This document shows positions 3,866-61,840 of a stretch of 64,000 nt of DNA, one piece after another (position 1 is the stretch's first letter; each line of letters opens with the position of its first letter). The stretch lies in NCBI RefSeq assembly GCF_025526975.1, contig NW_026515671.1, forward strand, positions 1,612,001-1,676,000, in the 5' to 3' direction. This DNA comes from Fimicolochytrium jonesii (lineage: Eukaryota). Below the pieces are notes generated by a model. It saw only the letters and a program-made list of their open reading frames with translations. It was not told where the DNA came from and did not search any database. The translations under genes were made by a program, and so were the position numbers.

Positions 3866-6656
3866 TCATTGAATGCCCACCATCCCCATAATCGGAAACC
3901 CGACACTCAACACCATCACCCACGCCACCACCGAGCACAGCAACCCGACTTTGATGAAATCGCCGACGGTCACCCAAGGCGTGCCGCTGGAATCCTCGAG
4001 GGATATCGCATTCATGTTGGGGAAGGAGGAGACGGGGAGGCCCATTGCTCCTGAGCACATCATTGCTGTGATGCGAGATCGAAAATTATTTCAGCTGCGA
4101 AAAGCGATAATTATGCAAAAATGAGGACATGTAAATCATACCAGCAGCCATGACAAGCGTATTGGCCCTCGGATCCGGCAACGTAGCCCCCACTTTCAAG
4201 ATAATCGGCAAGATGATCAGCGCGCCGACCGTATGGCTGATGAACGTGGTTCCCACCAAGACCAGGCCCGAGAACAGTGCGAGGCATTTGAAGACGGACA
4301 TGCCGGCGAGATGCGGGGTGAGCGCGTTGGTGATTTCGAGAAGGAGGCCGCTGGAGTCGACGGCTTTGCCGAGGGCTATGCCGCCCATGGCGAGCATTAC
4401 GACTGGGGGGATGAAAAGTTGGCGTCAGCAATCGGAGATCATGTTTCCTGAGTGACAAGTTGACAATGACGCAAGGACAAGAACCCACCAGACCACAACA
4501 TCGAATTCCAATCATCCTTAGTCAGCAACCCGGCCCCATAGAACGCAACGATGGGTATAATTGCAATCACACCCATATCCCCAAAATACTGCTCCAGCCC
4601 GCTCCCAAAGCACCACAGCAAGATCGTCACCAATGTGACCGCAATAATATACCACTGCTTCCTCTCCAACGGATGGTCCTTGAAATAGTTCCTGGAGGTA
4701 TTCTCAGCGCCAAACAGCTGGACGGGGGCCGCGCCTTCGGTTTGCGAGGGGCGGTAGATGGCGAGGAGGAGGCCCCAGATGATCAGGTCCATGATGATGA
4801 CGACCGGGAGGGAGACAGCGAACCATTGCGGCCAGGACGGGGCAGGGTTCATGGTTCCGATGGCGATGATGTTTTGGGGGGAGGAGATGGGGGAGGCCAT
4901 GCCGCCGACGTTGGCGGCCATGGCGATGCCCATGATGAGGCAGCGACCGTAGGAGGAGCCGAGAGGGAGGTTGCGCAGGATGGGCTGTGAGGAAGGATAG
5001 CTGAGTAAGCACAGGCTGGGAGGAATCGGAGACTTACAACCATCATCCTACTTACGGTGACAAGCGAAAAACACAACACAGGCGCCGCAACATTGCTAAT
5101 CCACATACTCGCAAATGTGCTCACAAACATGTTGGCCAGAAGCACCCACTGCGGCTTGCTGCCCGCCTTCCCCAGGACAAACGACGCCAGTCCCTTTGCG
5201 ATGTTGTGCTTGCTGAGCGCTGCTGCCAATGAGAAGCCACCGAGCAGCAGCATGATCACAGGACCGAACATGTCTGAGAAGATCTTCTTGGCGCCGTCTT
5301 TGGCTGTCATGCGGTTGTAGTCGGTGATGTGCCCTTTTGCGTTGATGACGGGTGTGCGGAGCACTCGGAGAAATACCACGAGGAAGGGAACCAGAATGGC
5401 GGTGATGAACAACGGAAGGACCTATGAGGGCAGGGATGCTGGTCAGATGAGAGGCACCGAAGAACCAGTAGACGAACTGCTCAGCATACCTCAAAAGCCC
5501 AAAGCAATGAGGCGAAGACCAGTATAGCCAAGCAGTTCCGCTGCTCCGGCGCCTCAAAGGTAGGGTACAGCAACAAGAACGCAAACACGCCCAGACAAAG
5601 CACGACTTGCAGCAGTTCCCGAGATATCCTAATGGTCACACCCAACAAAGTGAACTCGGTATAAATTGATTTCCCGGTCTTCGACTGTGCCCGCAGCGCT
5701 ATCGTCTCCCTCTTCCGCTCCTGCTCGATCATGTCCTTCCAGACCGTGTTCCTCTCCCAAATCACTCTTTCCCGCAATGTTCCCTTAAGATCCGTCCATG
5801 CTAGGGCGATCTTGCCATCTGTGCGGAGCGTCGCATACATCTCGACAATCTGGTTGATCTGCTGGTTGAGGGCTTCTTTCGATTGAGCGCGGAATGGTTT
5901 GGCCACTTCGACCTTCGTGGCCATATATTGCCGGCGGAGTTTGTTACCCGTCACTTTGTCATACTTTTTGATGATTTTGCTGAACCCTGTGTAATTCAGC
6001 TCGATGTAGTCCTTCAATTCGGAAAGAAGGATGAACAGGTCGATGGCACGCTTTGCGAAGCGGGTTCGGTATGGCTTCATAGCCTTCGAGGCCCACAATT
6101 GCGTCGTGAAGGAGACTCCGGACATGCGGGACCGTGGGCTGCCTGTTCGGTTGACAGGAGCGGAACCTCTCCGAGGCCAGGTCGACGATCCCGGTGATGT
6201 TGGCGACTGCGTCGGCCCCACCGATGCGACGGCGTCTCCTTCGACCGCGGGCTCCTCTACCAGGAGCCCATTTTCGATATCCGCCTGTGGTTTCGCATAG
6301 TCCTCCGCTGTTGCAACGTCCGTCACTAACTCGTCCACCAAAGACGTCAGCTCTCGCTCCTTTTTGGTGTAGAAGGCTGTTATCCGCTCGAGCTGCTCGT
6401 CCAACGCTTTGACGAAGAATGCGTTGCCCTCCTCGGCTGGCAATTTCGATAGGAGTGGCTGAGCTTCCTCAACGGCCGGCGAGCCTTCGTCGTTCTCGTT
6501 GTCGACCTGTATGTCCCTCGGTGAAGCAGGTAAGCGCTCGAACCCGAGCATTGCTTTTTCGATGGCATAGATGGCTTTCTTCAGCTGCGAGTATGCGAGG
6601 TAGTTCTCCTGCCATTCTGGCGAGGCGTTGATCTGGATGGAGTGCGAGAATTTCAT
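3866..6656 (-). CDS. PHO91: SPX-domain low-affinity phosphate transporter (Pho87/Pho90/Pho91, SLC13/DASS family), multi-exon
   Basis: N-terminal SPX (MKFSHSIQINASPEWQENYLAYSQLKK; LNYTGFSKIIKKYDK). Later exons carry SMWISNVAAPVLC, GIAMAANVGGMASPISSPQN, FISHTVGALIILP and GAMGLPVSSFPNMNA. The exact paralog is uncertain. Confidence 0.9.
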
Positions 6657-10799: not shown

Positions 10800-13142
10800 T
10801 CACTTCCCCTCCCCAACAACCCCACTAACCCACTCCCCAATCCCAGCCGCCCCGTCCTCCATCGAATGCCCGTCTTCCATCTCCGTCTCTCCATCATCAA
10901 CCCTCGCCTTCTTATCTTTATGCGGCGTCCAAATATTTTTCAACCTTTCAAACCCACGCATCAATTTACCCGCTTTCTCCATCACCACATCATCATCACC
11001 ACCATCGTCGTTGGAAGACGAATCAGGCGCCGAGTCCGATGAGGGTGCGTTGTCATCGATATCGGCGACATTACTGATATTATCCTGATCGTTGTCAGAG
11101 TCCGAATCGATGACAATAATTTCCGTTTGTGTTTTGGGGTGGCCGGTGTGGGTGCGCTTAAGGTGGTTGGCGGGAGGTGTCGGGAGTGCGACGATATGGG
11201 GCACGGGGTATGTGATTGCCGGGTACGTCTTGTGAGCAGCACCTGGTGTAAGGCCCGGCGTGACGGGGTAATTGGAAGAATAAGCGGAGGGACTGGCGCT
11301 GGAGATGGTGACAGTAGACTCCAAACGCGACGTGATCGCAACAGCGGGCGCGGGCGTCTCGGAGACGATCACGACGTCGTCGTCGGAGGAGATGTCGACC
11401 CACTGTGCGTCTTTCGGGGTGGTGGGGGAGAGGTCGCCGTAGTCGATGGTGATGGGTGTTGGGGGGAGGGTGCGGGTATGGATTACCGAGCGGGTGATCG
11501 TGCGTATCTTGGTCGCTTTCTTGGCGCGCTGTTGCGGTTGGCCTGGGTGAAACATGTCCCAGAGGGCTGCGGCTAGTCTTCTGTGCTTATCGGTAGCGTT
11601 CCCGGGTATAGTGCGCGGCCGGGGGAGCTGGAAGGGTATCGGTTCGTGATTGGCCGGTGTGCGCTTATCGCCTTGAATCTTTAACCAGAGCTCGGCAGGC
11701 GTCATGTACATCGAGCGGCTGCGAAAGGTGTCGGTGCGGGAGTTCCAGACGTGTTTGGAGGTGGTGTCGGTTTCCTTGTGGGGCACGCTGTCGAGGGTGT
11801 GATGCATGTGGCGCGTGTCCATGTAGTCGACGTCCGGGGCGTATTCTCGGATGTGGCTCAGGTACATATCATGTTTCATTTTTGCATAATGCTCTACCAC
11901 GCCCCGGAGAAGGTTGGCGGAAACCGCACCGCTCGGTGGGAGCTCGACTTGTCTGACGGGTGGGAGCGCGACTTGTCTGATGGCCGGTCCAGCAGACACC
12001 GGACCGTCTGTTGTGAGCGCGACTTGTCTGATGGCCGGTCCAGCGGACACCGGACCGTCTGTTGTGAGCGCGACTTGTCTGATGGCCGGTCCAGCGGCAA
12101 CCAGACCGTCCGATGTGAGCGCGACTCTCTTGACACTAGAGCGAGTTTTCTTGACCTTGGGCGCTTCCCGCACTGGGGAGTCAACAAGCCTAACAACACG
12201 CAGCGGTGCCTTGGATGCCGATGGCTTTTCCGGAGCTCCGTTCGCCTGCGGTGCTGCCGTCGATGATACTGGCTTCTTCACTAGATGGGTCGGCAGCACG
12301 GCGATGGATGATGATGATGGCTTGTCCGCTGCTCCGTTCGTCTGCAGCACTGCCGTGGACGTTGATTGGTTCCTCAGTACTCCTTGAGGCTGCACTGCGG
12401 TGGATGACGAATTTTGCTTTTCCGCTACTCCTTGAGCCGGCAGCAATTCCATCTCCGCAGCTTCCCTGCCCTCTTGCTCTGCTTCCACCGCCGCTTTTCT
12501 CTCCTCCTCCCACTCTTGCTTCGCCCGGCGCTTGGTCGCCTTCGACTCCGTCGGCATGTATCGTAGTCTTCTCAAAGCTTTCTTTGACTTGCTGGCCTTG
12601 TCGTTCCCCCTTACGTACCATCCTTCAATGTTTGCATCCTTGACCTCTTGCGTCATGGTGCCATCGACCCGTTTCGGTAGAGGAGGTAGAGTAGCTAGAA
12701 ATTTAGATACTCGTGCTAAGCGTGACGACGCGACCGGCTTGGCTTTATTGGGAGTCCTCCTGAGTTTCTCGATGATCTTGGCTGTAGGCTTGGTCTTGGC
12801 TAGTATTTTCGCCACTTTTGCTACAGCTTTCGCCATAGGCTTCGACGCGGGTATCGTTACGAGTCCGACCTTTGTAGTCGTTGTGTTTGTCGACGAACTC
12901 GCTACTTTCCACTTCGCCGGAAGCGGGACCGCGACGTCGTCGCTGAAGGATCGGAGGGATTGACCGCTGAAGACGCCGGTTCTTGTTCCGTACTCTGTCG
13001 TTCCGAGCGAGGCTGCTGAACGAGAAGGAAGGGAAGAGGAGGAAGGACGGGGAGGAAGAGGGATGGGAGGAGCCGTCCGTGAAGACGCACCTTCCGGGAG
13101 GGCCGGTTTGGGTGCTACTGCCGTGGTTGAGACGTCGCTTAT
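10800..13142 (-). CDS. Long low-complexity Pro/Ser/Thr/Lys-rich exon or ORF, possibly the 3' part of the upstream FHA gene
   Basis: 678-aa ORF whose frame appears to extend upstream to a candidate TTAG acceptor near 13143. It contains 17-aa tandem repeats. Confidence 0.55.
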   Translation of the reverse strand: MSDVSTTAVAPKPALPEGASSRTAPPIPLPPRPSSSSLPSRSAASLGTTEYGTRTGVFSGQSLRSFSDDVAVPLPAKWKVASSSTNTTTTKVGLVTIPASKPMAKAVAKVAKILAKTKPTAKIIEKLRRTPNKAKPVASSRLARVSKFLATLPPLPKRVDGTMTQEVKDANIEGWYVRGNDKASKSKKALRRLRYMPTESKATKRRAKQEWEEERKAAVEAEQEGREAAEMELLPAQGVAEKQNSSSTAVQPQGVLRNQSTSTAVLQTNGAADKPSSSSIAVLPTHLVKKPVSSTAAPQANGAPEKPSASKAPLRVVRLVDSPVREAPKVKKTRSSVKRVALTSDGLVAAGPAIRQVALTTDGPVSAGPAIRQVALTTDGPVSAGPAIRQVALPPVRQVELPPSGAVSANLLRGVVEHYAKMKHDMYLSHIREYAPDVDYMDTRHMHHTLDSVPHKETDTTSKHVWNSRTDTFRSRSMYMTPAELWLKIQGDKRTPANHEPIPFQLPRPRTIPGNATDKHRRLAAALWDMFHPGQPQQRAKKATKIRTITRSVIHTRTLPPTPITIDYGDLSPTTPKDAQWVDISSDDDVVIVSETPAPAVAITSRLESTVTISSASPSAYSSNYPVTPGLTPGAAHKTYPAITYPVPHIVALPTPPANHLKRTHTGHPKTQTEIIVIDSDSDNDQDNISNVADIDDNAPSSDSAPDSSSNDDGGDDDVVMEKAGKLMRGFERLKNIWTPHKDKKARVDDGETEMEDGHSMEDGAAGIGEWVSGVVGEGK
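11964..12126. repeat. Coding minisatellite, 51-bp unit, about 3.2 copies
   Basis: GAGCGCGACTTGTCTGATGGCCGGTCCAGC.. recurs at 11964, 12015 and 12066, with a partial copy at 12117. It encodes AGPAIRQVALTTDGPVS repeats on the minus strand. Confidence 0.9.
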
Positions 13143-44017: not shown

Positions 44018-44832
44018 CGTGTACGGATCGGGCGTCCGATCGGGCGTCGGGCGTTAGCATTAGGGCTCCGTCCCGTCCGAAGTAAAGATCCGCCTCGCTC
44101 AAAAACTGGTAGGCGTAACTTCGGAACCAACCATGGGATGGGCCGGGTTTGCCGCGGCCCGGGTACAGGCCCGGGCGTCCCATGGGCTCTCACCGGGATG
44201 GGATGGGACAAAGCTTCTGAGACCCGCTGTTTGGGCTGTTTGGAAAGGCGGAAGCGCAAGACGAAGCGGGTCGGGCGCCGCCGCGTTAGCTTCTGTTCGC
44301 GCGGGCCGCTCGGAGGATCGGAGGCGGCGGGCGTGGGCATTCGTATTACAGTATTTCATGTATCACAACGCTTCTGCAACTCCGCCGAGTCGCCGACATT
44401 CCATGAATCGTACTGTATGTTCTCTCATATGATCGTCGAATCTATTATGTCGATCACAATCGATGTGTCATCGATGTTCCATTGTATAGCCTGTAGGCGC
44501 CCGTAATTCATTAAAAAGTAGTACGGCGCCCTCGCTCCGAGTCGCTCGTCGAATCTACTATGTCAATCCCAATCGATGTCTCATCGAGGTTCCACTAAAA
44601 AGTAGTACGGCGTCAAAGATTCTCAGCAACGGCCGAGGCAGTATGGCATGTCGCCATAACCTGGTTTCTGGACGACACCCCACGCCTGGCAGGTCGACGG
44701 GCCAATTGAAAGCGGCGGTAATTGTCTTGGTGTCATCTTTCACAGACACAACCGGCAGCGGCAGCGGGTGCAACTCATTCGTGTACGGATCGGGCGTCGG
44801 ATCGGGCGTCGGGCATTAGCATCGGGCGTCGG
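44018..44832. mobile_element. Repeat-rich, non-coding, TE-like segment (possible non-autonomous element remnant)
   Basis: About 43-bp direct repeats CGTGTACGGATCGGGCGTC..TTAGCAT at 44018 and 44780; a GC-rich hairpin CCATGGGATG..CGTCCCATGG at about 44131-44185; an internal duplication at about 44433-44528 and 44547-44612. Confidence 0.45.
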
Positions 44833-46444: not shown

Positions 46445-46868
46445 GGTGACAGAGACATCCGCTGCGAGTCATTTAATCACTCTTGTCCCTTCCTGGGAGC
46501 GCTATGCCATGGTACGACGTAATCTCATATATAGTAGTGATAGAAAATGTCCAAACAGCGTTACCTAATCGAATGTATAGGTTGCATTCGATTAGGTCAC
46601 GCTGTTTGGACATTTTCTATGTAGCCGTCCCCTTGATCGCAAGGATAGAGCAGCAAACTCCTTGCATGAGAACATATGGGATTCAAAATACGTGATTCAA
46701 TCATAGGAAGAGCGACAAGAACGAAAGAGCGATTTCTATCCACCCCTGATTCACAAGCTCTCCCCCAACGCCCCCAACCGACGTTCTTCCGATGTGTCGC
46801 CGTCCCGGATCGATGTGCAAGAGTCCGGGCCGTTCGAAGGTACCTCATCTCCTGTTTCCTGTCAGATC

Positions 46869-48857: not shown

Positions 48858-51800
48858 TCAAACATCTAAGGGCCCTGGCCCTGGAATCGCGCTTCCCTTT
48901 TTGTCGTCGCTGCCACTTTCGCCCTTCCGTTCTGCCGTAGGTGGCAAAGTCGGTCTCCTTCCTGCCGAGGTCCCCACCACGCTTAAATCTCTACCCCTCC
49001 CACCCGCATTTACGGACCGGCAACTTTTCTCCACATCTTTCTGCTGGAGTTGGGTAAGCAGCGCGGACCAATTGGTTGCATCTGCCTCGCTCAGTTGCAT
49101 TTCGATCGTGCCGATCTTCCCACCAGCTATGATCCGCAGGACTTGCTTCTTCTCCCGCACTGGATCCAGTTCAAACTTGAAAGTATCCTCTCTCCAATTG
49201 CAGGATAGAGCCGAGCACTTGAAGACAAACGATACGAAGTCAGTTTCAGTATGTTCCCCACGATACGTCGGTCATCAGATGGATCGGCAGTATGGACTCA
49301 CATCAGGATACACATAAATGACCGTATGGTGCGCCGGCAGACATATCACATGGACATCCCTCCATGGGCCAAACATGAGCTTCGGCTTGAATCGCGCCAT
49401 CATTTGATGTTGGACCACATTCGCTAGACCCTCTTGCGCATGATTCGACACCGTCTGGCTAGTGATCGAACTCTGTCGGCTATCATCAACCCGGGCCGTT
49501 GCTCGGATGCCCGCTTTTAGTCCCAATCCGTTTGATGGCTTCAAGTCGGATTCTCCTTTTCTCAGGATCAGCCATGCCTTTGGGGCGAAGGTCACGGTGA
49601 GAATGACGAACGATGCGGACCAGATCGCGATCGCGCGAACCATGAAGACTAGGCTTGGCGTTGTTCCTGGCATGAAGACGACGGGAAAGCCGAGGAGACA
49701 AAAGACGATCACGTTGTAGGAAGCAATGCCGAGCTGCTTTGATTCGTTGTACTGCAGGGCGACATTGCGATTCTGGTCATGATTGAGCACACCGGAGAAT
49801 AGTTTCAGTGAGACGCAAATATCCGCACACAACCGTATCCACTCACCACGAACGCAAATAAAACAGTGACCCCCAGAATGAAACCGTTATATGCCATCAA
49901 CATCGTGCTCCACGTATTATTGGCAGACTGGCACACAAGGTAGTGATCCGTCGATTCCGGATTCATCATGACCGGTATTGGAGGGGAAGCGGCGCCCCAG
50001 ACAGCGATCATGATTACATTAATCAGAACAAGCGGGACCGTCGCCTGTAACAATCGCATATCTTTCAGCGCCTTTTTGGATGGCCTCGGATTGTTAAAAA
50101 TGTAGTAGATGCGGAGGTTCTTGATGCAGAGACTCCCCAGCGATAGCGAAAAGCCGATGGCGAGAAGGGCGGGTGCAACTATACAGCTGGCTCGGGTGAC
50201 GGGACCAGCATAGAACAGGTTCGAGATGAAGGTCAAGGCAAGACCCAATAAGATCAGGCCCAGGAAGATCGGACTGGCGGCTTTGATGACTTTCCGTTTG
50301 ACGTAAATTCTGGTGAACACCGCGGCGGCCAGGATACCCAGCAAGCCGACGCTGCTCAAGAATGCAACGAAGATTCCCAGCGGAGCGCTGTAGGCTGTGT
50401 ATGGAACGCAAGGTATCACGACTTGGATGGCGATGGGATCAGAAGTTCTCAGATCATCTATCACTTGGTAGGAAAGGGTGTCGATCCCACAACCTGTCGG
50501 GTGGAAGGTCAGATCAAGTCGATAGATGTGTGAGGAGGTATTGGAAGTCGCGGACAGAAGCTCGGCATTAGAGATGCGCTCGCCCGCTGCATTTGTCAGA
50601 TATCCTATCCCCGGAGGCTTGGTGATTTGAAACTTCGGAGTCCGCTCGTCCCGTTCATAAGCTTCAAGCATCACGGTGAATGGCAGAACATCTCCGGTGC
50701 CACCATTGAGACGTGATACCGGATAGCTCATTGCCATTCCCTCGGGGGCCGTCGCCGGATGAACCAGGGAGGTCAAGTGGATGGTGACGGTGCTCGTTTC
50801 GGATAGCTGGGAGAGATCCCCAATGCAGTCCGTCGCCCCGTAGTCAAACCCATCGACGCCACTCTTTGAGGGGTCGGGCACGTACACGACTCGATACTGC
50901 ATGTCGGTGACATAGCCAGCTTCTAACCGGTCAGTCCCCACGTTCTCAATTGCATCAATCTCCTTCCATCCGTCGAGTTTATAGTTGGCACGATCCAGCC
51001 TAATTGCATCCGTCTGGAAAGGTGTGCCACAGACGCCCGGCGAGTTCATCAGGTAGGTCTGCGATATATATGTGCCCCTTGATGAGTACAGGTCTTTCTG
51101 CGCTGCGCCTTTCCACACTGCGATCCAGTCGTTGGTGGCAGGATGCCGGACGGAGATGATCTCCGTAGTTCCCGGATTCAGATTTTCGTATCTGTTTCCC
51201 AAGTTTTCTTTCAGCAGATGAAACGAAGGATGAGGTCCGGTGAGTGCAAGAAACCTACGAGTTGATGCTAACAATATGCGTCGCTAAATCATATCCAACC
51301 TCAACGAACTCCATCGCATTCGGCGAAGGCGGGCAGTTCCATCCCCATGGATTTGCAGGACCCTTTGGTTCGCACTTGACACCCCTCGGCGTACTTGGAC
51401 ACCAGGAATCTTCAGAGCCGCCATAGCCGAGATCCGCGCGACTTGCATCATATTTCTCTGGCGCGCCTAGCAGAGCATTGACACCATAGCCAGAGTATTC
51501 ATCTGTCCAATAATACTGGGTGCTAAAACGCAGAGTCGGATCACTCGGCCAGGGGATGGTTCGGTTCGGGTACTGTGGAACTCGGCTAACCCATTGCTTC
51601 TTTCGTGGCTGACTGATCCGCCACGGTGTAAAGTACTCTGTAATGGCTTCCCCAATGTAATTCGGTGGATTAGTTTCATTGTATTGATACAGCTTGCCGA
51701 GTGTCGGAAGCGAATTGATGGTGCACACCAGAAGCCGCTCATCCGAGTCTTGAGTGATTGCATTCAATTGAATGATGATCGAGGATGCGTTTTCTTCTGA

Positions 51801-54548
51801 GATGTACGTGCTGAGGAATGGAAAGCCGTCCCATCCGATGTTGCTCGGTTGCTTCGGGGCCGCTGTCCACAGGGGGAAACGGGATGCAGATCCACCGCCC
51901 AGCTGACCGGCATAGGATCCAGCAGGCCCGCATAAAGATGCCTCAGTCGTGCTTGCGGAAACCGGTGCACCGCAAGCTGCAATACCCTTGCTGCCCTCAT
52001 TTAAATGCCACACTACGCTCAAATTGGCCGTCTCTTGCGGTCTGAGGAGAACATTCAAATTCCTCGATCCTCCCACAACCCCTTTCGACGAATTGAAAAT
52101 GGCAATCTCGTCCAATCCACCCTCGTATCCTTTCCCGATTACGAGCCCCGTTCCGCTGGATGGTATGCCGGCGGTGGAAACATGTACGTCTTGTACATTA
52201 TTGTTCACGTATATACTGATCTCTCCGCTCGAGTCTTTGCTCACAGCTACATGCGACCACTGCTGGGAGGTGATATTTGCGCGGAGGAGCGGTTGACCGG
52301 CGACGGCAAAACGCAAGACGTTGTGCACTTGATCCATAGTGAGAACAAGCGTATCGTCTGCGGTAGCCCATATGCGTGCCGCAGTAGACGACGATACGGG
52401 GTCTGGCCATAACCACATCTCCATAGTGAACTCCGCCATCCCCAAAAGTGGGTAGTTCGGGAAATCTATATGGTGTCGATTTGCAAATGTCAGATAAAAG
52501 GTGTTGACGCCAGCAACGGCCGGAATCCCGGTCCTTGCGGCGAGGTTGATTGTCGCGACGGCGTTGTTGGTTGAGACTATCCCATGCTCGCCTACTACGC
52601 TGAACTCGAACGTGTCAAATGGGGCACCGTGTTCATTGGGGTGTGGTACATATTGGATGCCGTCTACTTCGGTGTTCACGACATCACCGACACTCAACAG
52701 CTCCTTTCGTTGCGGGACGTCGTTCCAGATCAAGGTCGCTCTATAGATTGAACCGCGAATTGGAAGTGTCTGCACAATCGCACCTTTAAATGGCCCTTGT
52801 GCAAAGGGGCGTGCCGTCAGAGGGATGAAGATGTTTGCAGCCCCCGCTACGACATCCACGTGAACATTCCGAGCAGTCAGCGATTTGGCAACGATGAGTG
52901 TCACGGTCGCCGATGTCGGCGCTGATGTGCCGTCGGAGATCTGGTACGTGAATGTACAGCTAGCATCCACTGCCGCGGTGGAGGACACCCAAATTGTGTC
53001 ACTGTTGCCCGGGATAACGCTCCCATCAACGGCGGGTGTGACGGAGTCTAGGTATATAGACCATCCGGCTGCCGTGGAACAGGTTTGAAGTGACTGGATT
53101 GACGTGGTGATCTGTGCATTGGGGACGTCAGAAGAACCGGGAAGCTTGACGCTGGATAAGGACGCCGACGGAATGAAGGCCCGCACTCGTCGGCTGCCAG
53201 TCAAGGGGGCATCGGAAGGGATCCAAGAAGGTCGTCGGTTGCATTCGACGTTCTGTTTGCATGTGCCACAGTCAGTCAACATGAGAGAAATCAACATCAC
53301 GGTTGGGATCCTCCCACTTACGTCCGAGACTCCAATTCTCCCAGCGGGGCATTCGACAACATCCGCAAACGCATTCTGACCTCCCAGCACCAGTGGGTTC
53401 GCAGTTGCATCAACCTCATTCAAAATAGTCTTGCTATCGCTTTCCAGTATGTCCATCCCCCATTTTGCGAATAAGCCCGCGGTGCTTCCCGGGAGCACGT
53501 GGTGCATATCCGCTTGAATCTCTTCCTGCGTCCGAACAACGTTCCATATCTTCGTTGAAAAAGGTGAAGGAGCGTTGACGTAAGTCAATATCGAGTGCAA
53601 CGACAAAAGCGCAAACCCACCCGAACTTCATCCATAACCCCCACAAACGCCTTCAGGTCCTGAAACGAGCCATAGAATGCATCCTGGTCCTGCCCCAACA
53701 CCAAAGCGACCGTGCTCGTAAGATTAGCGCCCACTAAGTAGTCTTGCGTCTCGGTGTTTTCATCGCTGTATTCTAGGTCGCCGTTGAGGTAGAAGTGGGC
53801 TACTCCTGTTGTGACCTGTGAGGGTGTGAGTTGTTGCCCGAAAGGGGAAGCATGTGTGGGCGATGAAGGGATACGTACATCCAGTGTGAGCGCTTTAATG
53901 GAAGCAATCCGTGTGCAGATCAACAGTTAGTCAAGCTATGCGTCCCCGGAACGACGCAACATATCCATTGACCCTACCCATATGCTGCCACTCCCCCAAC
54001 CGAAGATCCGTCCAATTCGTCGCAGACTAATAGCAAGCCGCATCAGCCCAAATATCAACAAAAGCACATTACCCAAGAAAAATCACAAACCAAAATGGCC
54101 CCTGCGGTATTCGACAACAACGACGCATAGCCATTCTGTACATTAATGTAATCATCATCAGCGCCATCATCCACCCCCTCAAAATTGAATGAATGCAACA
54201 CGGCGAGGGAGAAGTAGTGCGGGTTTTGGGAGACGAAGGGGAAAAAATTGGTTCTGCGGTTGTGAGGAAATGTCGGGTTAGCTATTTTCTTCATCACATA
54301 TAAAGGAGGGACGCTGTCCATCACTCATACTTCGCCCAAAACTCGATCGTGAAAGTACTTGGAGGCCACTGCGTTACGATTTGGCCGTACGAGACCCCGT
54401 CGACGATGCCTTGGCTTCCGATGCCGGCAACTGTGGTTGTGTTGTAGAAATACAATGCGTTGCCTGCGCCGCCGGCATACAAGGTCGCTTCCGTATAGGG
54501 AAAGGCGACGCAGGCTAGAAGGAACAGGAGAAGGAGACAGATGGACAT
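48858..54548 (-). CDS. Class C (7tm_3, GABA-B-like) GPCR with very large LamG/Ig-like/FBXL4-like ectodomain and PH-like cytoplasmic tail, multi-exon
   Basis: Signal peptide MSICLLLLFLLACVAFP; LamG motifs FTIEFW, VGVMDEVR, FTMEMW, QWSHVAV and GGLDEIAIF; 7TM motifs KVIKAASPIFL, GFSLSLGSLCIKNLRIYYIF, YNESKQLGIASYN and TFAPK. Confidence 0.88.
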
Positions 54549-54943
54549 TGCGTGGAAGTACGACACTTTGCAAGAGTAGGGGCGCCGTTTGGGGCCGCTG
54601 CCGGAGAGCTTGAGGAATTACTTCCTCAGAGGGCAGAAAAGTCTTTTGCGATATTGACTGGCTCCACCGCGATATTGACGGACGCTTTCATTTCAAATCC
54701 GGGATTGGTTGAGAATTCTCTAATTGTCAGAAAGTCGTACCCTGAGCAGCAGAATTGGGAAGAGAGAGAGAGATCCGAGCCCTGGAGGGAGGACGGAACC
54801 TAACTGTCGGAGGGCCGTCTTTAGTCCAGATTGTACCTTGCCTTCATCTACTGTGTCAGCGTCATTTCGGTTTGCGGAGTCGCGATTACCCAAGCATCCC
54901 ATTCATTCATTACCGTCGTTCGAAAACAACCCTGACTCCAAAA

Positions 54944-55100
54944 TGTATGAAAATCATACAACAACGCAAACAACACCGTGGGTCTCTCTACAACATACAA
55001 GAAGTATTGTCGCATATCTTGCGATGCACGCAGGTCCGTGTGCCATCGCGGGTGGGAATAGCTAAATACGTGAGGCTAACTATCTAAGGAGACTAGAAAA
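54944..55100 (-). ncRNA. Candidate Fanzor omega-RNA scaffold
   Basis: Four consecutive stem-loops directly 3' of the Fanzor stop, at 55058-55083, 55021-55049, 54989-55014 and 54944-54960. GTCTC (55089-93) and GAGAC (54982-86) could close the first three. Confidence 0.45.
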
Positions 55101-55102
55101 CT

Positions 55103-55965
55103 TCACCACAACTGTGCATCAGCTAACCAGCCCGGACCATTCCATCTCGGTCGATGACCGTTGTAGTGTGAATATTGATGAATCAGGAACCGAAAGTTGG
55201 CGGCAGCTTGAATGTCTCTGTCAAAGATGGGCGGCATATCAGGAGGTATCTGGCATGTTGGGCACTATCAAGTCTCCAGTTTCTGCCCATCTCGTTGCGG
55301 GACTCTGGGCACCTTGGAAACAACATCGGTTCCGCTTCATCTGCTTCTTGCTCGCACTATCGTCGGAGTCCGTGCCTGGCCGGAGCCTCCCGGTGTCGAC
55401 GATACCAGTACTTGGGACGATGTTTGCATGTGCCATAGGGTTGCCAAGAAGCCCTGGTGTCGTGGATATTGGCTTCTGGAAATTGTCCGGCGAGGGTCTC
55501 GTAGCCTGCCATTGAATTATGGCATTGTGTCGTAGTGCCCATTTCAGGCATGATGAAGACAGTTGCGCCGGCAACGGCCAGTTGTCTGGCAAGGCTCTTG
55601 ATTGGCACGGTGCCATGTGGTTTCTGCCAGCCACGACGTGTGAAATCACCAGAACCAAAGGCGAAAACGGGTTGATGTTCCAAGCTGAATGCGAGCCTGT
55701 CTTCTGGGTGGATGTTATTCCGTGGGGCATTGGTGTGACGATCGTAGTGGTGGTTTCTAAGGCATCGCATTCGGACCTTGTACCGATGGTTTCTTCTCAG
55801 GCCGGCGCCTCTGGCCAGGCCAGATGTGTGGCCAATTCGTTGCGTGGATGCCCAACGCTCGTGGGTGACGCGCTTCATGAGGTGGAGGGCATCATCCATC
55901 AACGCTCGCTGCTGATGTATCTTCCAAAAGTGTTATGGATGACGCGCCCATACCATAAGCTTACC
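55103..55965 (-). pseudogene. Fanzor1 (TnpB-derived RuvC nuclease), C-terminal half, disrupted
   Basis: WYGRVIHNTFGRYI/QRAL helix, VFAFGSGDF..HGTVPIKSLARQLA..VFIMPEMGTTTQC (rearranged RuvC-II Glu plus TT-x-x-C), CPTC, FDRDIQAAANF (RuvC-III) and GHRP. In-frame TAGs at 55357 and 55265 plus two apparent frameshifts. RuvC-I not found. Confidence 0.78.
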
Positions 55966-55977
55966 TACTGACAGCCG

Positions 55978-56059
55978 CCAATGTCAACTGCCAATGTCAA
56001 ACGCCAATGTCAATGTCAATGTCAGTGTCAATGTCAGTGTCAATGTCAATGTCAATGCC
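55978..56059. repeat. (CAATGT)n hexanucleotide tandem array
   Basis: About 12 CAATGT/CAGTGT units abutting the 5' break of the Fanzor relic. Confidence 0.9.
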
Positions 56060-56213
56060 ACTCCCCCTCTCTCCTCTCATTTCGCCAATCCCGCCTCGGC
56101 TTCTCCACATCACCCCACTACTTCTCCATAGCCAGGCCACTCCTCCTCTCTGCTCTCATTTCGCCAATCCCCCCTCGGCTTCTCCACACCCCCCACCACT
56201 TCTCCATAGCCAG
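56058..56213. repeat. Tandem duplication of about 77 bp
   Basis: CCACTCC..CTCTCATTTCGCCAATCCC..CTCGGCTTCTCCACA..ACTTCTCCATAGCCAG occurs twice head-to-tail. Confidence 0.85.
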
Positions 56214-56493
56214 CAGCTGTAGCAATGATCTCTACGCTCGCCACGCACGCTCTAGGAGCATAGCTGGCGCCCCCGCCGGTCCCCTCTTGTTGTTGTTGTT
56301 CTCTGGCCTGCTGGGTTGCCTATCTATAACTAGCCGCCCTCTCTTCGTCCATTCCCTTCCTCCCCAGCAGATCAACACCAGTTCTTCTCATCTCCTGTTC
56401 TAGTCCTTGTTTCTTGTTTTGCCAATACAATCTCTTGTCGCCTATCACTCTCGCCTTGTCTTCTCTACTTCGCTTCCGCCTCAGTCGTCGAGA

Positions 56494-57720
56494 TCATAAC
56501 AGAAGCAATCTTGTGAAAAATTTGTTGGCCGGCTCTTCAGTTCTCTCTTCCGGCCGACGGCCGGCAATTTCCACCCGGTACCACCGCGCCAAAGCGCCGA
56601 CGTGTTGTCTTGCTCCCGCCGCATCCCGGTTCCTCATCGAACCCAAAAGTCTGGCCAACGACTGACCCAGCTCCACGCTCATCGTCTCCAGTCCGAAACG
56701 CTCTCCAGTAAGGATGTCCTGGAGAGGACCGTCAAATATCAACTGAACCGCAGTTCCGGCAAAACAGGTACCACCGGCACTCGGTATGCCAAATCTTGTT
56801 TGAACCCCACCCCCCCGGCCTCCCCGTGAGCCCGGTGTCATTGTTCCCCGGCCTCTATCTCCCCGGCCTCCATCTCCCCGGCCTTGATCTCCCCCGCCTC
56901 GCTCCGGCCGCGCTCCACGAGACCCAGTCCTACGGCTACCAGGAGGGGGGTTGAAGCCTTGTGGACTAGGCATCAACGGAGCTGGCATGGTTTCGATGGC
57001 ACTCCACACAGGCAAGTCTTCGATTGGAAGGCTTTGCGATCCACGGGCGAGGGTGTCGTCGTTGTTTCTGTCAGGCGGAAAGGGGATGTGCACCCGGACA
57101 CCTTCAATTGACCGGAGCAGGTGGTGCGTGTAGGGCCCGGTTGAAGATTCCGACTCGGTGCTGGTTGTTGCTCGTCGAGGCTGGGGGTCAGGAAGGTCCT
57201 CAAAAGTGAGAGGCACCACAATCCGAAGGATGGTTCTCCGGGGATTCGCCGGGTCTGGCGAACGCGTGAGGCCCATGGACATGGGGATGGTCACATTGGG
57301 AGGGAAGACAAGCCACCCGTCCCGGTTGATGGAAAACATTGCCGAAGGCTGAATGTACCCATGTCCCGACTGGCTATGGGAGCCGTCGCCTCCATCTCCA
57401 TCATGCTCTCCAGGTGGTTGGTCAGGCTGCTCCGCGGGGTTCGGCTTGTCGGATCGTTGAGGCTGTACCGGCGGGATCGGTGGCTGAGGTGCTGGAGGTT
57501 CCGGTGGTTGAGCTTGTTCAGCTTGTTCAGGTCGTTCCGGCTTGGTTGCGGTTTGTTCGGTGGTCAACGGCTCTGGCCTTTCTGGGTGTCCCGTTGACGG
57601 ACCCAATGGGGCTGGTAGATTTACACCGGCTTGCTGTGTGCTTGGTCCTGCCGTCCTAGAAGGCCTAAGGGGAGGCGGAGGCTTTGGGATTCCAACGGGC
57701 AGATTAGGTTCATTGGCCAT
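56494..57720 (-). pseudogene. Pro/RGG-rich ORF ending in a truncated USP (peptidase C19)-like domain
   Basis: RFGIPSAGGTCFAGTAVQLIF resembles the USP Cys box (GLxNxGNTCY/FxNSxLQxL), and EEPANKFFTRLL resembles the QxDAxEFLxxLL box. No His box before the stop. Confidence 0.5.
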
Positions 57721-57800
57721 GGTGGAAGTTGTTGGAACGGATGCTTGAACACGGGGGAAACTTGCGGAGGGGTCTTGATTTCTACGACGTGGGTAGAAAC

Positions 57801-57885
57801 AATTGAGAATGCAAAGTATACGTACTAGAAAAGGGTGGATATCAATTGAGAATACAAAGTATACGTACTATAAAGGGTGGATATC
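57801..57885. repeat. 43-bp tandem direct repeat (2 copies)
   Basis: AATTGAGAATGCAAAGTATACGTACTAGAAAAGGGTGGATATC followed by a near-identical copy, about 80 bp upstream of the USP-like ORF start. Confidence 0.9.
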
Positions 57886-58025
57886 TTTCCAAAATGCCAA
57901 GAAGTCTAAGCAATAGGGGCTTGGGGAAGTGTCAATGTTCCAGTAGAATACCGTCTTTTCGAGGATGGAGAAGTCAGCGCTGTTGATGATTGATGACCAC
58001 TTGCACATTTGAGCCCTATATATAC

Positions 58026-60450
58026 CTAATTCGAGACGACATTTGACCGGCCTTCCAACGCAGCCTTATTAATCTCCTGCTGGAGAAGGATATGGGCGAC
58101 TTGATGCCAGTTTGTTTGACAGCGGCATGACAAGTTGGATAAGGTAACGTAGCAGGCAGGACGACCGTCCGGTATCGTTATCGTTCTAACCTGAATCCAA
58201 CGGGCAGCTGGCCGCTTCGTATAAACTGTAATAACCGAAACATAAGACACTGACCAAGCCTGTCACACTCAGCCACATGCTGTGCTCAGGGTCTCCTCAG
58301 GTGCTCAGCTCACAGTGTGGAGGAGGGGCATAATATTATGGTGGATTTGTGACGCCCAACAACAGTGAATATTCCCTCTGTCCATGCAGTTGGAAGGAGA
58401 GTAAAGATTCTCGTCTCAACATTTTGGATCTAGATCTTAGAGTTCATCGCATTCGATTAAGTTCTGGCAACAAACCGTTGACGTACATAAATGTACATGT
58501 TACAAAAGAAATCCGGGTTGACTTGACTTGAGGACGACGACGACGACAAATAGAGAGAGCGGGCGCTCCGACCAGCCTGCATCCTGAGCCCGCCACCCGT
58601 CAGTCTCGAGTCAAACACAAAGCATCCCAGCACGTTCCTAAAAATAGTAGGTGCCAAGATGCGACCGGTGATCCACAACAGGTTGCTGACGCACGATAGG
58701 GCACCCGTTCTTCCCATGGCATTGTTCAGCAAGCCAGGCACAAATCTTACACCACGCTTTAGAGAGAAGATCCCTAAAAATAGTTCCCAACTCAGGCGTG
58801 ATGCTCGAAATGCGTAGGTCGTGCCTTCATATAGCATGAGCGGCCCCGGGGCCGTCCGTAACGCTCCCCGTGTTGCTTCACAACGGCCGTGCCATCATCT
58901 TGACGTCTTGGTATACTGCTTCAGGGCATGAAGAAGTAGCATCTATTGCAAAAGGAAAGACAGATGTGAGGACGATGATCTGGACGACGACTGGATAAAA
59001 CCCGATTGATGCCTACCTCTCGAGAGCTAATCCCCGGCAGTCATCACAATCTCAAACAGATTAGTGTTTGAATTGTGGGAGCTGCAATATGTCCCACATA
59101 TGCAGGTAAGGAGAGCGAAGAACGCATCTGGAGGCAACAAAGAATAGTGGAACATTAGAAGGCGAGACCGAAGAACGCCACTTTGAATGGAAGGTGGACT
59201 TGCTTACCAACGAGATGCCAGTTCTTCGACAACGACGACGCATAGCGACTCTCACCATCATTGCATGAGATGGAGTGCATCAACGGAGTACATGACCTAA
59301 GGTGAGAAACAAAGGTGGATATAAGATAGCGACGACGACGATGGGCTAATGGTGCATGAGCAGTTGGAGTCACAACGGTACTTACCATCAATCATGTAAA
59401 CCTCCGGCGAAATGTACTGCACGACACATCAGCGTTAACGATGGAGCGCATATGCACTGATAGACCTGGATGAGTAAGATGAATAAGACGAGGGAAATTG
59501 GGTTAGCAAAGACCGTATAATAAGGGTTGATTGATTTGCAGAGGTAATACTAACCATGTGTGTGATCTAAGACCAGCAAAGGAGCGCCCATTGGTTGCAC
59601 GTAGTCGGCAGTGAACGTATGCTGCGATTGGCATTGGCCTTGTAGCGACGAATGGCTTGTGATTGATCTGTGACTGGGACAGTGAGTTTAGAATGGGACA
59701 ACCGGCAACGAACACCTGTCGCACACGAGTATGGTATGGAAACAGACCAGCTTGAACGAGTGCCAAACGAAAGAGATGTGGCGATGATTAATTCTGGCGA
59801 TGATCGCGATGAAGCATCTGGAGGTGAACTTTGTGGCGCTGGGAGTACAGTACGTTCAGGCTGGAGCGTATTTGTAGAGTAACTGTCACTTAAGTGAACC
59901 GAAGAGATTGCAGATGAGTAGATTGGATCAGATCGGGATCTAGATTGGGGGAACGCCTTGTTGAAAAAAAGTGAACGAGGTAAGGCGCAAGGACACAGAC
60001 TTTTATACGTATGTACCCGGAAGCGACGCGTCCCTCGGTGGCAAATGGGGTCGCATAGCCACTCACACGTGTTTTGCCCAGATTCGTATGGACACATCTA
60101 TTAGTTTTCCGTTTTTTTGCCTGAATTTAAATAGCAACAGTGGTTTTCTGCACGCGTTCAGGACAGATGACAGTTATTAACACTGAGTTGGGTGCGGACC
60201 ATCGACGCATAGAAAATGACAAGGCCGACGGGTCCGAGACGTTAGATGTAGGAGCCGGGAAGATCCGTGAGGGATGGGGGGACTCGGGAGTACGTGTAAT
60301 GGAAGGCAAAGTAACACTGTACTGTACGCATGGGCTTTATTCACGCGTATCGACCACCCTCAGACGTGTTGGGCGACGGGCTGAATGCGGCGCATGTGCA
60401 AGTATCAATACCGAGAGAGGGTTAGATTCTCGCTGCATATACAAATGAAA
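58026..60450 (-). mobile_element. Highly decayed multi-exon gene, possibly a Mutator (MULE)-type transposase relic
   Basis: SWIM-like YVTLSNLSCRCQTNWHQVAHIL at about 58085-58150 (third Cys absent). Several GT..AG intron-like segments at about 58930-59385 and many stops. No DDE triad confidently seen. Confidence 0.3.
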
Positions 60451-61840
60451 CGTCCACGCTTGTTTCTTCTGATGTGCATGAATCGTATGTGAAAAGGCGG
60501 CAGTGAGGTGTCGCTCTAAGCTGAGCTGAACTTGGCCAGGAGGCGTAAGGAAGTGGTTGCGTTACTTCATATCGAGTCAAGGGCCGTCCTGCAGAGGTGA
60601 GAGAGGTGTGCGAACAAAGCTACCCCACCAAATCGGAGGTGCATCGAGCATCTGTTTGTATCAAATTCCGGTCCGCAAAGGTGAATAAAAGGCTTTCAAG
60701 CGAGCGAAGCGAACGGCAGTACATCGACAGAGGCGCAGACGTTCTGTTCAGGCGGAAGTCGCCAAATCCCATTCAAAAATGCTTCTCGATTGGAAAATCT
60801 TAGGATTAGGCGGCGGTGCCGGAGCCAGTAGTGGCTCTTTGAGGTCAGGTCAGTGACTCTCGTGGCGTCCTTCCTGTTTGGCCCGCCCGCCTGCGCCGAG
60901 CCGTGCCGCTGGCGTAGGAGGAAGATCCGCCGGGGTGGCGACCACCACTGGCAAGTTTCAACGAGGTCATTTCAGTCATCCGCACGTATGCGCTTCGTGG
61001 AACTTGCTATCTGCTTGTCGATACCCACACTTTAGTTCTCGAAGATGTTCCCCACCATATCATAACCCCGGCCCCTCTTTCCATTTACCGTGGAACGCAT
61101 TGGGTGGGAGCGTTCATTATTTGTAGTGAATTTCGTATTCCTCGAAGCGGAGTCGTTGACGGGGAACTCCCTGAGCGTCCATCCTCGAGACCTGACCCAA
61201 TGATAGACGGACCAGATGGTGTATAGTTCGCTGCTATTCCGTGCTATTAGAAAGGTACTGGCCTACTCTGCAAACGCGTGTGTCATCAACTACTGAAGAA
61301 CACGCTAGATGTGACTTGGGTGTTACAATGTAACCCTAACCCTAACTTATTCCGTGCGGAAGGCTAAGGCGTGGCATGGCAGCCGGATCACACCCCCCTC
61401 AGATTCTACGATGCCTCAGGATCTACTTTGCTTAGAAAATGGCGATGCATCAGGAAGAGGGAAAACCCCTGTTACACTGCTTATGTGGGTGCTGGGGGTA
61501 TATATATATGATGGGAGAAAGAAGCCCTGCGAGGGCAAACTGTTGAAATCGGCAAGACGTGTCCGATTCGATTTCGCCTGATTTCGCCTTCCCCTCAAGG
61601 TCTTACAGAACTCAGAATTCGCTCACAATCCTCCCCAATTTCCACAGCATCGGTTCCCTCAAACTCAAGCTCAGCACGGAGATAGCCTTCACTTCCACGT
61701 TCAGGTCCCGCTCTATTTGCCAACGCCAGCATCCTCGTCGGAAACGAGATCCTAACGAACCCTACAAAAGGAAAAAAGCGGAGCTTATCGGCATTCCTCC
61801 ACACAATTCCCCCATCCCCAAAAACCCCATCCTACAAACA

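Follow-up and report, generated by a model that had tools for sequence, protein, structure and literature searches.

The locus described here, from Fimicolochytrium jonesii, holds a 408-aa open reading frame (ORF) next to the remains of a Fanzor1 nuclease. We consider it somewhat short of an even chance that the locus is what an internal deletion left of a single mobile element, in which a domain derived from a ubiquitin-specific protease (USP) stood ahead of Fanzor1. The tail of the ORF is probably of USP ancestry, yet it is not a member of the C19 peptidases.

The 408-aa ORF and its surroundings

The window analyzed is a 64-kb stretch, NW_026515671.1:1,612,001-1,676,000, and all coordinates are those of this window, forward strand. 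Its genes are intron-rich and of fungal type (SPX plus citrate transporter, PPIP5K, TCF25, TAF10, and a class C GPCR). The ORF-Fanzor locus is bounded by the GPCR gene below ~54850; its other flank is unassigned sequence above ~57900. The features on the ORF side of the locus are as follows.

56494-57720, minus strand: 408-aa ORF; residues 1-310 are Pro/Gly/Arg-rich and mostly disordered, and a USP-thumb-like domain makes up the C-terminus.
57800-57885, no strand assigned: 43-bp tandem duplication, 5' of the ATG of the ORF.
56734-56790, minus strand: Cys-box-like motif, residues 311-329, with Cys319 at 56764-56766, Ser at -5 and Gly at +3.
56497-56733, minus strand: segment predicted to form three to four helices; EEPANKFFTRLL, at its end, occupies the place of the USP Asp (QxD) box, and the segment alone is not significant.

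A reading of the sequence only, made earlier, had described a 408-aa ORF with a Pro-rich/RGG N-terminus, and the translation agreed with this. The 408 codons plus TGA lie within a 457-codon stop-to-stop frame, while none of 1,000 dinucleotide shuffles of the region reached 408 codons (longest frame, 384; median, 160). The remaining five frames across the region contain 6-19 stops each. Pro makes up 19% of residues 1-310, Gly 12%, and Arg 9%, and the RGG repeats are encoded at 56806-56925. Codon usage was uninformative: the score of one held-out host exon was just as low as that of the ORF. The 43-bp tandem duplication is a possible left limit. Inside the Pro-rich part, residues ~121-220 (57060-57360, minus strand) are hydrophobic and possibly beta-rich; Pfam and PDB searches with this segment were empty.

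Homologs of the ORF were sought with the whole sequence among 1.84 billion representatives, with 0 matches, and with residues 295-408 against 715-2,040-aa proteins, with 0 of 662 candidates. None was present in phage records, among 17 pattern matches in viral contigs, or in prokaryote genomes (0 of 164).

Several other features of the window were observed. Directly downstream of the Fanzor remnant, the class C GPCR (7tm_3; 49278-54850, minus strand) has a large ectodomain with laminin-G/pentraxin and Ig/cadherin-like domains. At 58400-59900 (minus strand) there appears to be a host gene spliced at several GT-AG introns; the pieces of it that were scanned gave no Pfam family. At 46540-46620 there is a near-perfect, MITE-like palindrome of 81 bp, and at 44018-44822, upstream of a short-chain dehydrogenase gene, 12-bp tandem units with dispersed 43- and 49-bp repeats. 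A 780-codon ORF at 10803-13142 (minus strand), adjoined by an FHA exon, contains a coding repeat of 51 bp x3.2 and has no Pfam match.

USP likeness of the ORF C-terminus

At Cys319, the ORF has the G-x4-G-x-T-C-aromatic box with Gln at +7 that is the C19 Cys-box pattern. The Gly, Gly, Thr, Cys, aromatic, Gln, and Pro of the box all stand in the USP register, with 11 of 23 positions identical, and its Pro-Leu agrees with viral USPs although it lies outside the search pattern. On inspection by eye, Gln at +7 and Gly at -8 fit the USP register, and an OTU identity of the motif was discarded for that reason.

When the last 108 aa were compared with 45 viral USP thumbs by hhalign, the match had a probability of 57% and an E of 1.1e-4 over 53 columns. 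Scored without context, the ORF reached 25.1, which was attained by 0/307 same-length window segments and 0/400 shuffles, the best of these controls scoring 18.4. A 197-sequence thumb HMM, 87 of whose members had been fetched by a pattern built on the ORF's own motif, placed the ORF first among 1,308 window ORFs (9.2 bits, E 0.13), and a 13-sequence thumb HMM independent of the motif also placed it first (E 0.69). With a Cys-box-only HMM the ORF ranked second (E 1.4), and with a full-length USP HMM fourth (E 11). In the ESM Atlas, residues 300-408 gave top scores of 0.90, and all ten of the best family-bearing matches were of the UCH family or clan; the features shared, 136-146 of 256, fall below the 170 typical of true members.

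The USP signal of the tail comes almost wholly from the Cys box. Taken alone, the score of the segment after the box was matched by 52/300 shuffles and 52/243 host segments. In a further comparison 620 of 759 scored shuffles reached its score, and with the box held fixed, 9 of 175 did. The signal depends on ~25 residues that were first picked by eye, and its E values are 0.13-1.4 if the search is taken to cover the entire window.

Other hallmarks of a USP are missing. The Asn five residues before the Cys belongs to the oxyanion hole of USPs. This position is Ser in the ORF, whereas all 87 viral USPs fetched by a pattern leaving it free have Asn. At +3, the ORF has Gly where viral USPs have Asn. 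The sequence-only reading had placed a Cys box and a QxD box about 60 aa apart. Both motifs are present, with 65 residues between the first and EEPANKFFTRLL (56503-56538, from residue 395), but the second reads EEP, and the Asp is invariant in 45/45 sequences of alignment A3. Because of the EEP, the "QxD box" is a positional likeness only: the Cys-to-EEP spacing is 76, and the Cys-to-QxD spacing is 67-85 in those viral USPs (13 of 63) whose QxD is recognizable. Neither the full USP HMM nor a motif scan detected a His box in the six frames of 54900-58100, and the ORF stops 89 residues past the Cys. Judged by these residues, the ORF product would be unable to form a Cys-His-Asp triad.

Searches against families and folds did not recover a USP. 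No Pfam match with an E of 10 or less was obtained for the whole ORF, the last 108 aa gave a single unrelated match (E 0.23), and a PDB sequence search with the ORF gave E 0.13 or worse. Single-sequence models had pLDDT values of 37 and 54, the Cys box being unresolved in the latter; in single-sequence AF2, pLDDT was below 50 across nearly all modelled residues ahead of the last helices. With a low-confidence model as the query, Foldseek returned generic helical matches and none at E 0.001, and VIA gave a best Z of 8.5, with helical bundles or repeats throughout and no USP catalytic domain among the matches listed. Compared with the USP catalytic domain (USP7, triad C223-H464-D481; PMC12578725), the ORF has the same Cys-box register, Gln at +7, Pro at +13, and a helical segment of thumb length, but it lacks Asn at -5 or +3, the QxD, the fingers, and the His box, and it falls below the Pfam threshold.

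Given a signal this short, the likeness might be accidental. The ORF would then be an orphan gene of the host or of an element, rich in Pro/RGG along its body and ending in a short helical segment, beside an ordinary dead Fanzor. The empty Pfam and fold searches, the joint loss of Asn and QxD, and the choice of the decisive residues by eye would all fit such an origin. We nevertheless think it unlikely, since neither control segments nor shuffles reached the hhalign score, the box keeps the USP register down to a Pro-Leu outside the pattern, and the spacing and helix layout agree with a USP thumb. The claimed C19 resemblance holds for the Cys box and for an above-chance match to the thumb profile, and it fails for the other defining features and for Pfam. 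The ORF probably ends in the eroded front half of a deubiquitinase.

The Fanzor1 remnant and the spacer

The sequence downstream of the ORF contains the following features.

55957-56493, no strand assigned: spacer; (CAATGT)x12.8 at 55979-56057, a 79-bp tandem pair at 56057-56213, then a tract that is pyrimidine-rich on the plus strand.
55357-55956, minus strand: Fanzor1 piece 1, with the helix before RuvC-II, the conserved Gly, the RuvC-II Glu, and TTxxC.
Within piece 1, minus strand: helix before RuvC-II, assigned by eye and broken by a TAA at 55933-55935.
55642-55665, minus strand: conserved Gly (FAFGSGDF) of piece 1.
55522-55548, minus strand: RuvC-II Glu and TTxxC of piece 1.
55103-55270, minus strand: Fanzor1 piece 2, in a different frame after two tandem stops, ending with the C-terminal RP motif.
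55250-55264, minus strand: CxxC of piece 2.
55193-55225, minus strand: RuvC-III RD motif of piece 2.

By its motifs and profile matches, the neighbor of the ORF is identified as a Fanzor1 remnant. An HMM of 19 viral Fanzor1-like sequences, from loci fetched by the RuvC-III motif and picked by eye with TnpB-like and duplicate rows excluded, ranked the two pieces first and second of 1,308 ORFs (E 0.0016 and 0.16). Alignment A2, which contains both window pieces, matched SpuFz1 at 1.2e-63, with SpuFz1, PpFz1, and GtFz1 falling within 1e-63 to 3e-34; the conserved Gly and the RuvC-II Glu (G500 and E536 of SPu-1-1p) are both in the remnant and aligned in A2. In the Atlas, the pieces scored 0.95 and 0.94 to fungal clusters and to clusters partly carrying PF07282. 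In the zinc-finger region TTxxC, CxxC, and RD are present, but with CxxS as the first pair and with the two pieces in different frames.

As had been proposed, the remnant lacks RuvC-I: the RuvC-I Asp and the N-terminal WED/REC half are missing, and a 664-position full-length profile was matched solely at positions 537-645. In comparison with SpuFz1, PpFz1, and GtFz1, the motif order of Gly, RuvC-II Glu, TTxxC, CxxC, and RD is the same (PMC3627910, PMC10432273), but the remnant is without the RuvC-I Asp and the N-terminal half, has stops and a frameshift, and has CxxS as its first pair. Neither an omegaRNA nor a terminal repeat was detected at this locus; in a single-copy fold scan for an omegaRNA, no 100-nt window fell below z -1.3, and Rfam gave no match. 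Pfam and direct PDB searches with the Fanzor piece were empty, its hhalign comparison with the 4-sequence alignment A1 was not significant, and relatives numbered 0 of 663 candidates and none in viral contigs. Three metagenome loci (L001-L003) were rejected as relatives, being off-frame chance matches in bacterial operons. Separately, one giant-virus contig carries three Fanzor1 ORFs of ~980 aa (L005, 4838-7765; L007, 4838-7795; L008, 4847-7783) with a ~100-aa insertion within the zinc finger.

The remnant shares the strand and frame of the ORF, although a shared frame is expected by chance in one case of three. The TGA of the ORF had been placed about 530 bp before the Fanzor fragment, which proved accurate: Fanzor-like sequence begins at ~55956, 537 bp past the TGA, and the open Fanzor frame at 55932, 561 bp past it. 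Beyond the TGA, the shared frame has four stops in the spacer and a TAA, after which Fanzor-like sequence opens.

The Fanzor is interrupted by a TAA, by two stops in tandem, and by a frameshift. At least four lesions were counted, all of them within ~287 Fanzor codons, whereas the 408 codons of the ORF are free of any (binomial P 0.03). An intact ORF beside a lesioned Fanzor is not what joint decay predicts. This imbalance would suit domestication: the nuclease half would have decayed, and the front half of a USP-Fanzor element would have been retained by the host as a gene for a pseudo-USP thumb, non-catalytic and attached to a disordered Pro/RGG scaffold. The start codon stands in a favorable context (CCACC ATG G), and the catalytic support residues were changed by multi-base substitutions rather than by single decay steps, as domestication would also allow. 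However, the searches above gave no homolog of the ORF, and a USP thumb that lacks fingers and palm is unlikely to bind ubiquitin. We regard domestication as very improbable. From the residues and segments that are lost, neither the USP-like domain nor the Fanzor remnant could be functional today.

The spacer was inspected for remnants of the USP finger and palm or of the Fanzor N-terminus (WED/REC/RuvC-I), and none was found. Just ahead of the Fanzor similarity, at 55964-56013 (minus strand), are an AG/GTAAG junction and branch-site-like hexamer repeats; the junction may represent the end of an intron or a splice donor. Within the 64-kb window, there are no terminal repeats and no second copy of the locus, and among inverted repeats at 53500-61500 none was convincing as element ends. 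A 35-nt inverted pair at 54150/57957 was rejected as element ends because one arm lies inside the GPCR gene. CpG O/E was 0.73-0.82 over the ORF, spacer, and Fanzor versus 0.97-1.21 in five host exons, a weak distinction given that further 1-kb windows also reached 0.73-0.85.

These observations bear on whether the two halves ever belonged together. They might instead have arisen separately, if a 5'-truncated Fanzor copy landed beside a truncated fragment that carried a USP-derived domain and came from a host gene or another element; the spacer would then be the terminus of one or the other. Consistent with this, the tandem repeats of the spacer resemble element ends and Fanzor similarity begins just beyond them, the ORF is unbroken while the Fanzor is broken, 5'-truncated Fanzor copies are described as common (PMC3627910), and USPs are known as Helitron cargo without Fanzor (PMC11417382). 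We judge separate origins to be improbable, because two independent truncations would have to meet in the order, strand, and frame of the published USP-Fanzor proteins, and because no RepHel or transposase Pfam family was detected in the 142 of 187 long window ORFs scanned or in the 61 ORFs near the locus.

Published deubiquitinase-bearing Fanzors and the origin of the locus

The sequence-only reading had not recognized a USP paired with Fanzor as a described architecture. The pairing does occur in Data S1 of Jiang et al. 2023 (PMC10530073), and USPs as transposon cargo are in print (PMC11417382). Among the 3,655 Fanzor entries counted by Jiang et al., at least four of family3 have a USP domain within their first 400 residues: Fanzor50_1915, _0973, _0437, and _2107 (1,278-1,755 aa; rows 98, 940, 1470, and 1728; PMC10530073). 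These entries were judged on ~400 N-terminal residues each, and their RuvC parts lie beyond that. In _2107 the USP follows ~270 low-complexity residues, and _0973 has a second Cys box near residue 380 (PMC10530073). Two unclassified entries, Fanzor50_3025 and _2614 (rows 331 and 2647), begin with an OTU-like motif identified by eye (PMC10530073). Data S1 also contains evident gene-model chimeras, one row headed by EF1-alpha and one by a retroelement (PMC10530073), and the four USP rows begin without Met, suggesting that, with the method of Jiang et al., they are perhaps stop-to-stop ORFs. The family3 USP entries are Asn/Gln-rich and appear dictyostelid-like.

In the portions of these entries that were compared, the USP is N-terminal to Fanzor, as at our locus, and _2107 shares the long low-complexity leader. 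Fanzor50_1915 has, by eye, the AVQ box variant and several later thumb residues in common with the ORF. The published entries have canonical Cys and Asp boxes, three have a His box within 400 residues, and all appear as single long ORFs; the ORF domain, unlike them, is degenerate, truncated, and apart from the nuclease. Apparently, the pairing passed unremarked in Jiang et al., at least in the main text: "ubiquitin" and "peptidase" have 0 occurrences in the main texts of PMC3627910, PMC10530073, PMC10432273, PMC10711439, and PMC13565253. The Yoon 2023 and Saito 2023 supplements had no USP-bearing rows among the motif matches listed. No description of a USP-Fanzor pairing was found in the open literature covered; fig. 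S1B of Jiang et al., on extra Fanzor domains, could include UCH.

Co-occurrence was also sought in viral sequence. USP and Fanzor were found together at 0 of 237 viral USP loci, which are not homologs of the ORF and have short flanks in one third of cases, and at 0 of 57 Fanzor/TnpB loci. A weak search with the Fanzor alignment against 876-2,500-aa proteins gave 0 of 3,855. One viral contig (L024) has two USP genes less than 3 kb apart (2280-2633 and 4992-5345).

Helitrons provide a further precedent. PF00443 is a stable cargo of HLE2 Helitrons according to HELIANO (PMC11417382), Fanzor1 is carried by Helitron2 in copies that are often 5'-truncated and internally deleted (PMC3627910), and the Helitron deubiquitinases (VTD/OTU) were proposed to act against ubiquitin-driven clearance of element proteins (PMC9741609). 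Our locus would have in common with HLE2 carrying UCH cargo (PMC11417382) and with the VTD/OTU Helitrons (PMC9741609) a deubiquitinase on a eukaryotic DNA transposon. It differs in that the HLE2 partner is RepHel, with subgroups c and d mostly from lungfish and axolotl as described there, whereas here there is no RepHel or Helitron end. The USP-bearing Fanzors of Data S1 (at least four), the PF00443 Helitron cargo, and the Fanzor1 genes of Helitron2 together raise the likelihood of one element.

A single-element interpretation is plausible. Its ancestor would have carried a low-complexity N-terminus, a USP, and Fanzor, in that order, as one long ORF or two genes, and its middle (USP fingers, palm, and His box; Fanzor WED, REC, and RuvC-I) would have been deleted or replaced. 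By analogy with the Helitron deubiquitinases, the USP may have stripped ubiquitin from the element's proteins, slowing their clearance, while the RNA-guided nuclease would have cut target DNA. The loss of the Asn and of the Asp-box residues suggests that the USP was divergent or non-catalytic before the deletion. The earlier proposal of an ancestral element coupling a deubiquitinase to a nuclease therefore stands in part: Fanzors with an N-terminal USP are published, in the entries named above, but no element ends were found at this locus, and its ORF is intact against at least four Fanzor lesions.

The locus is one dead copy and of modest weight by itself. Because both halves are dead or incomplete, it cannot itself test ubiquitin control of Fanzors, and should the USP-Fanzor link fail, what is left is an ordinary dead Fanzor beside an orphan ORF. 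It is of use chiefly because it points to the apparently intact USP-bearing Fanzors in the public table of Jiang et al., which could be assayed for both activities. A broader proposal, that a fungal Fanzor1 lineage was translated with a USP-derived head and that this, with the USP and OTU-like entries of Jiang et al., reflects a recurrent, independently gained fusion by which the nuclease protects itself from ubiquitin-driven clearance, is speculative, and we lean against it. If true, a built-in deubiquitinase would suggest that Fanzors are under ubiquitin-proteasome control and carry a counter-measure to it, as has been proposed for Helitron deubiquitinases (PMC9741609).
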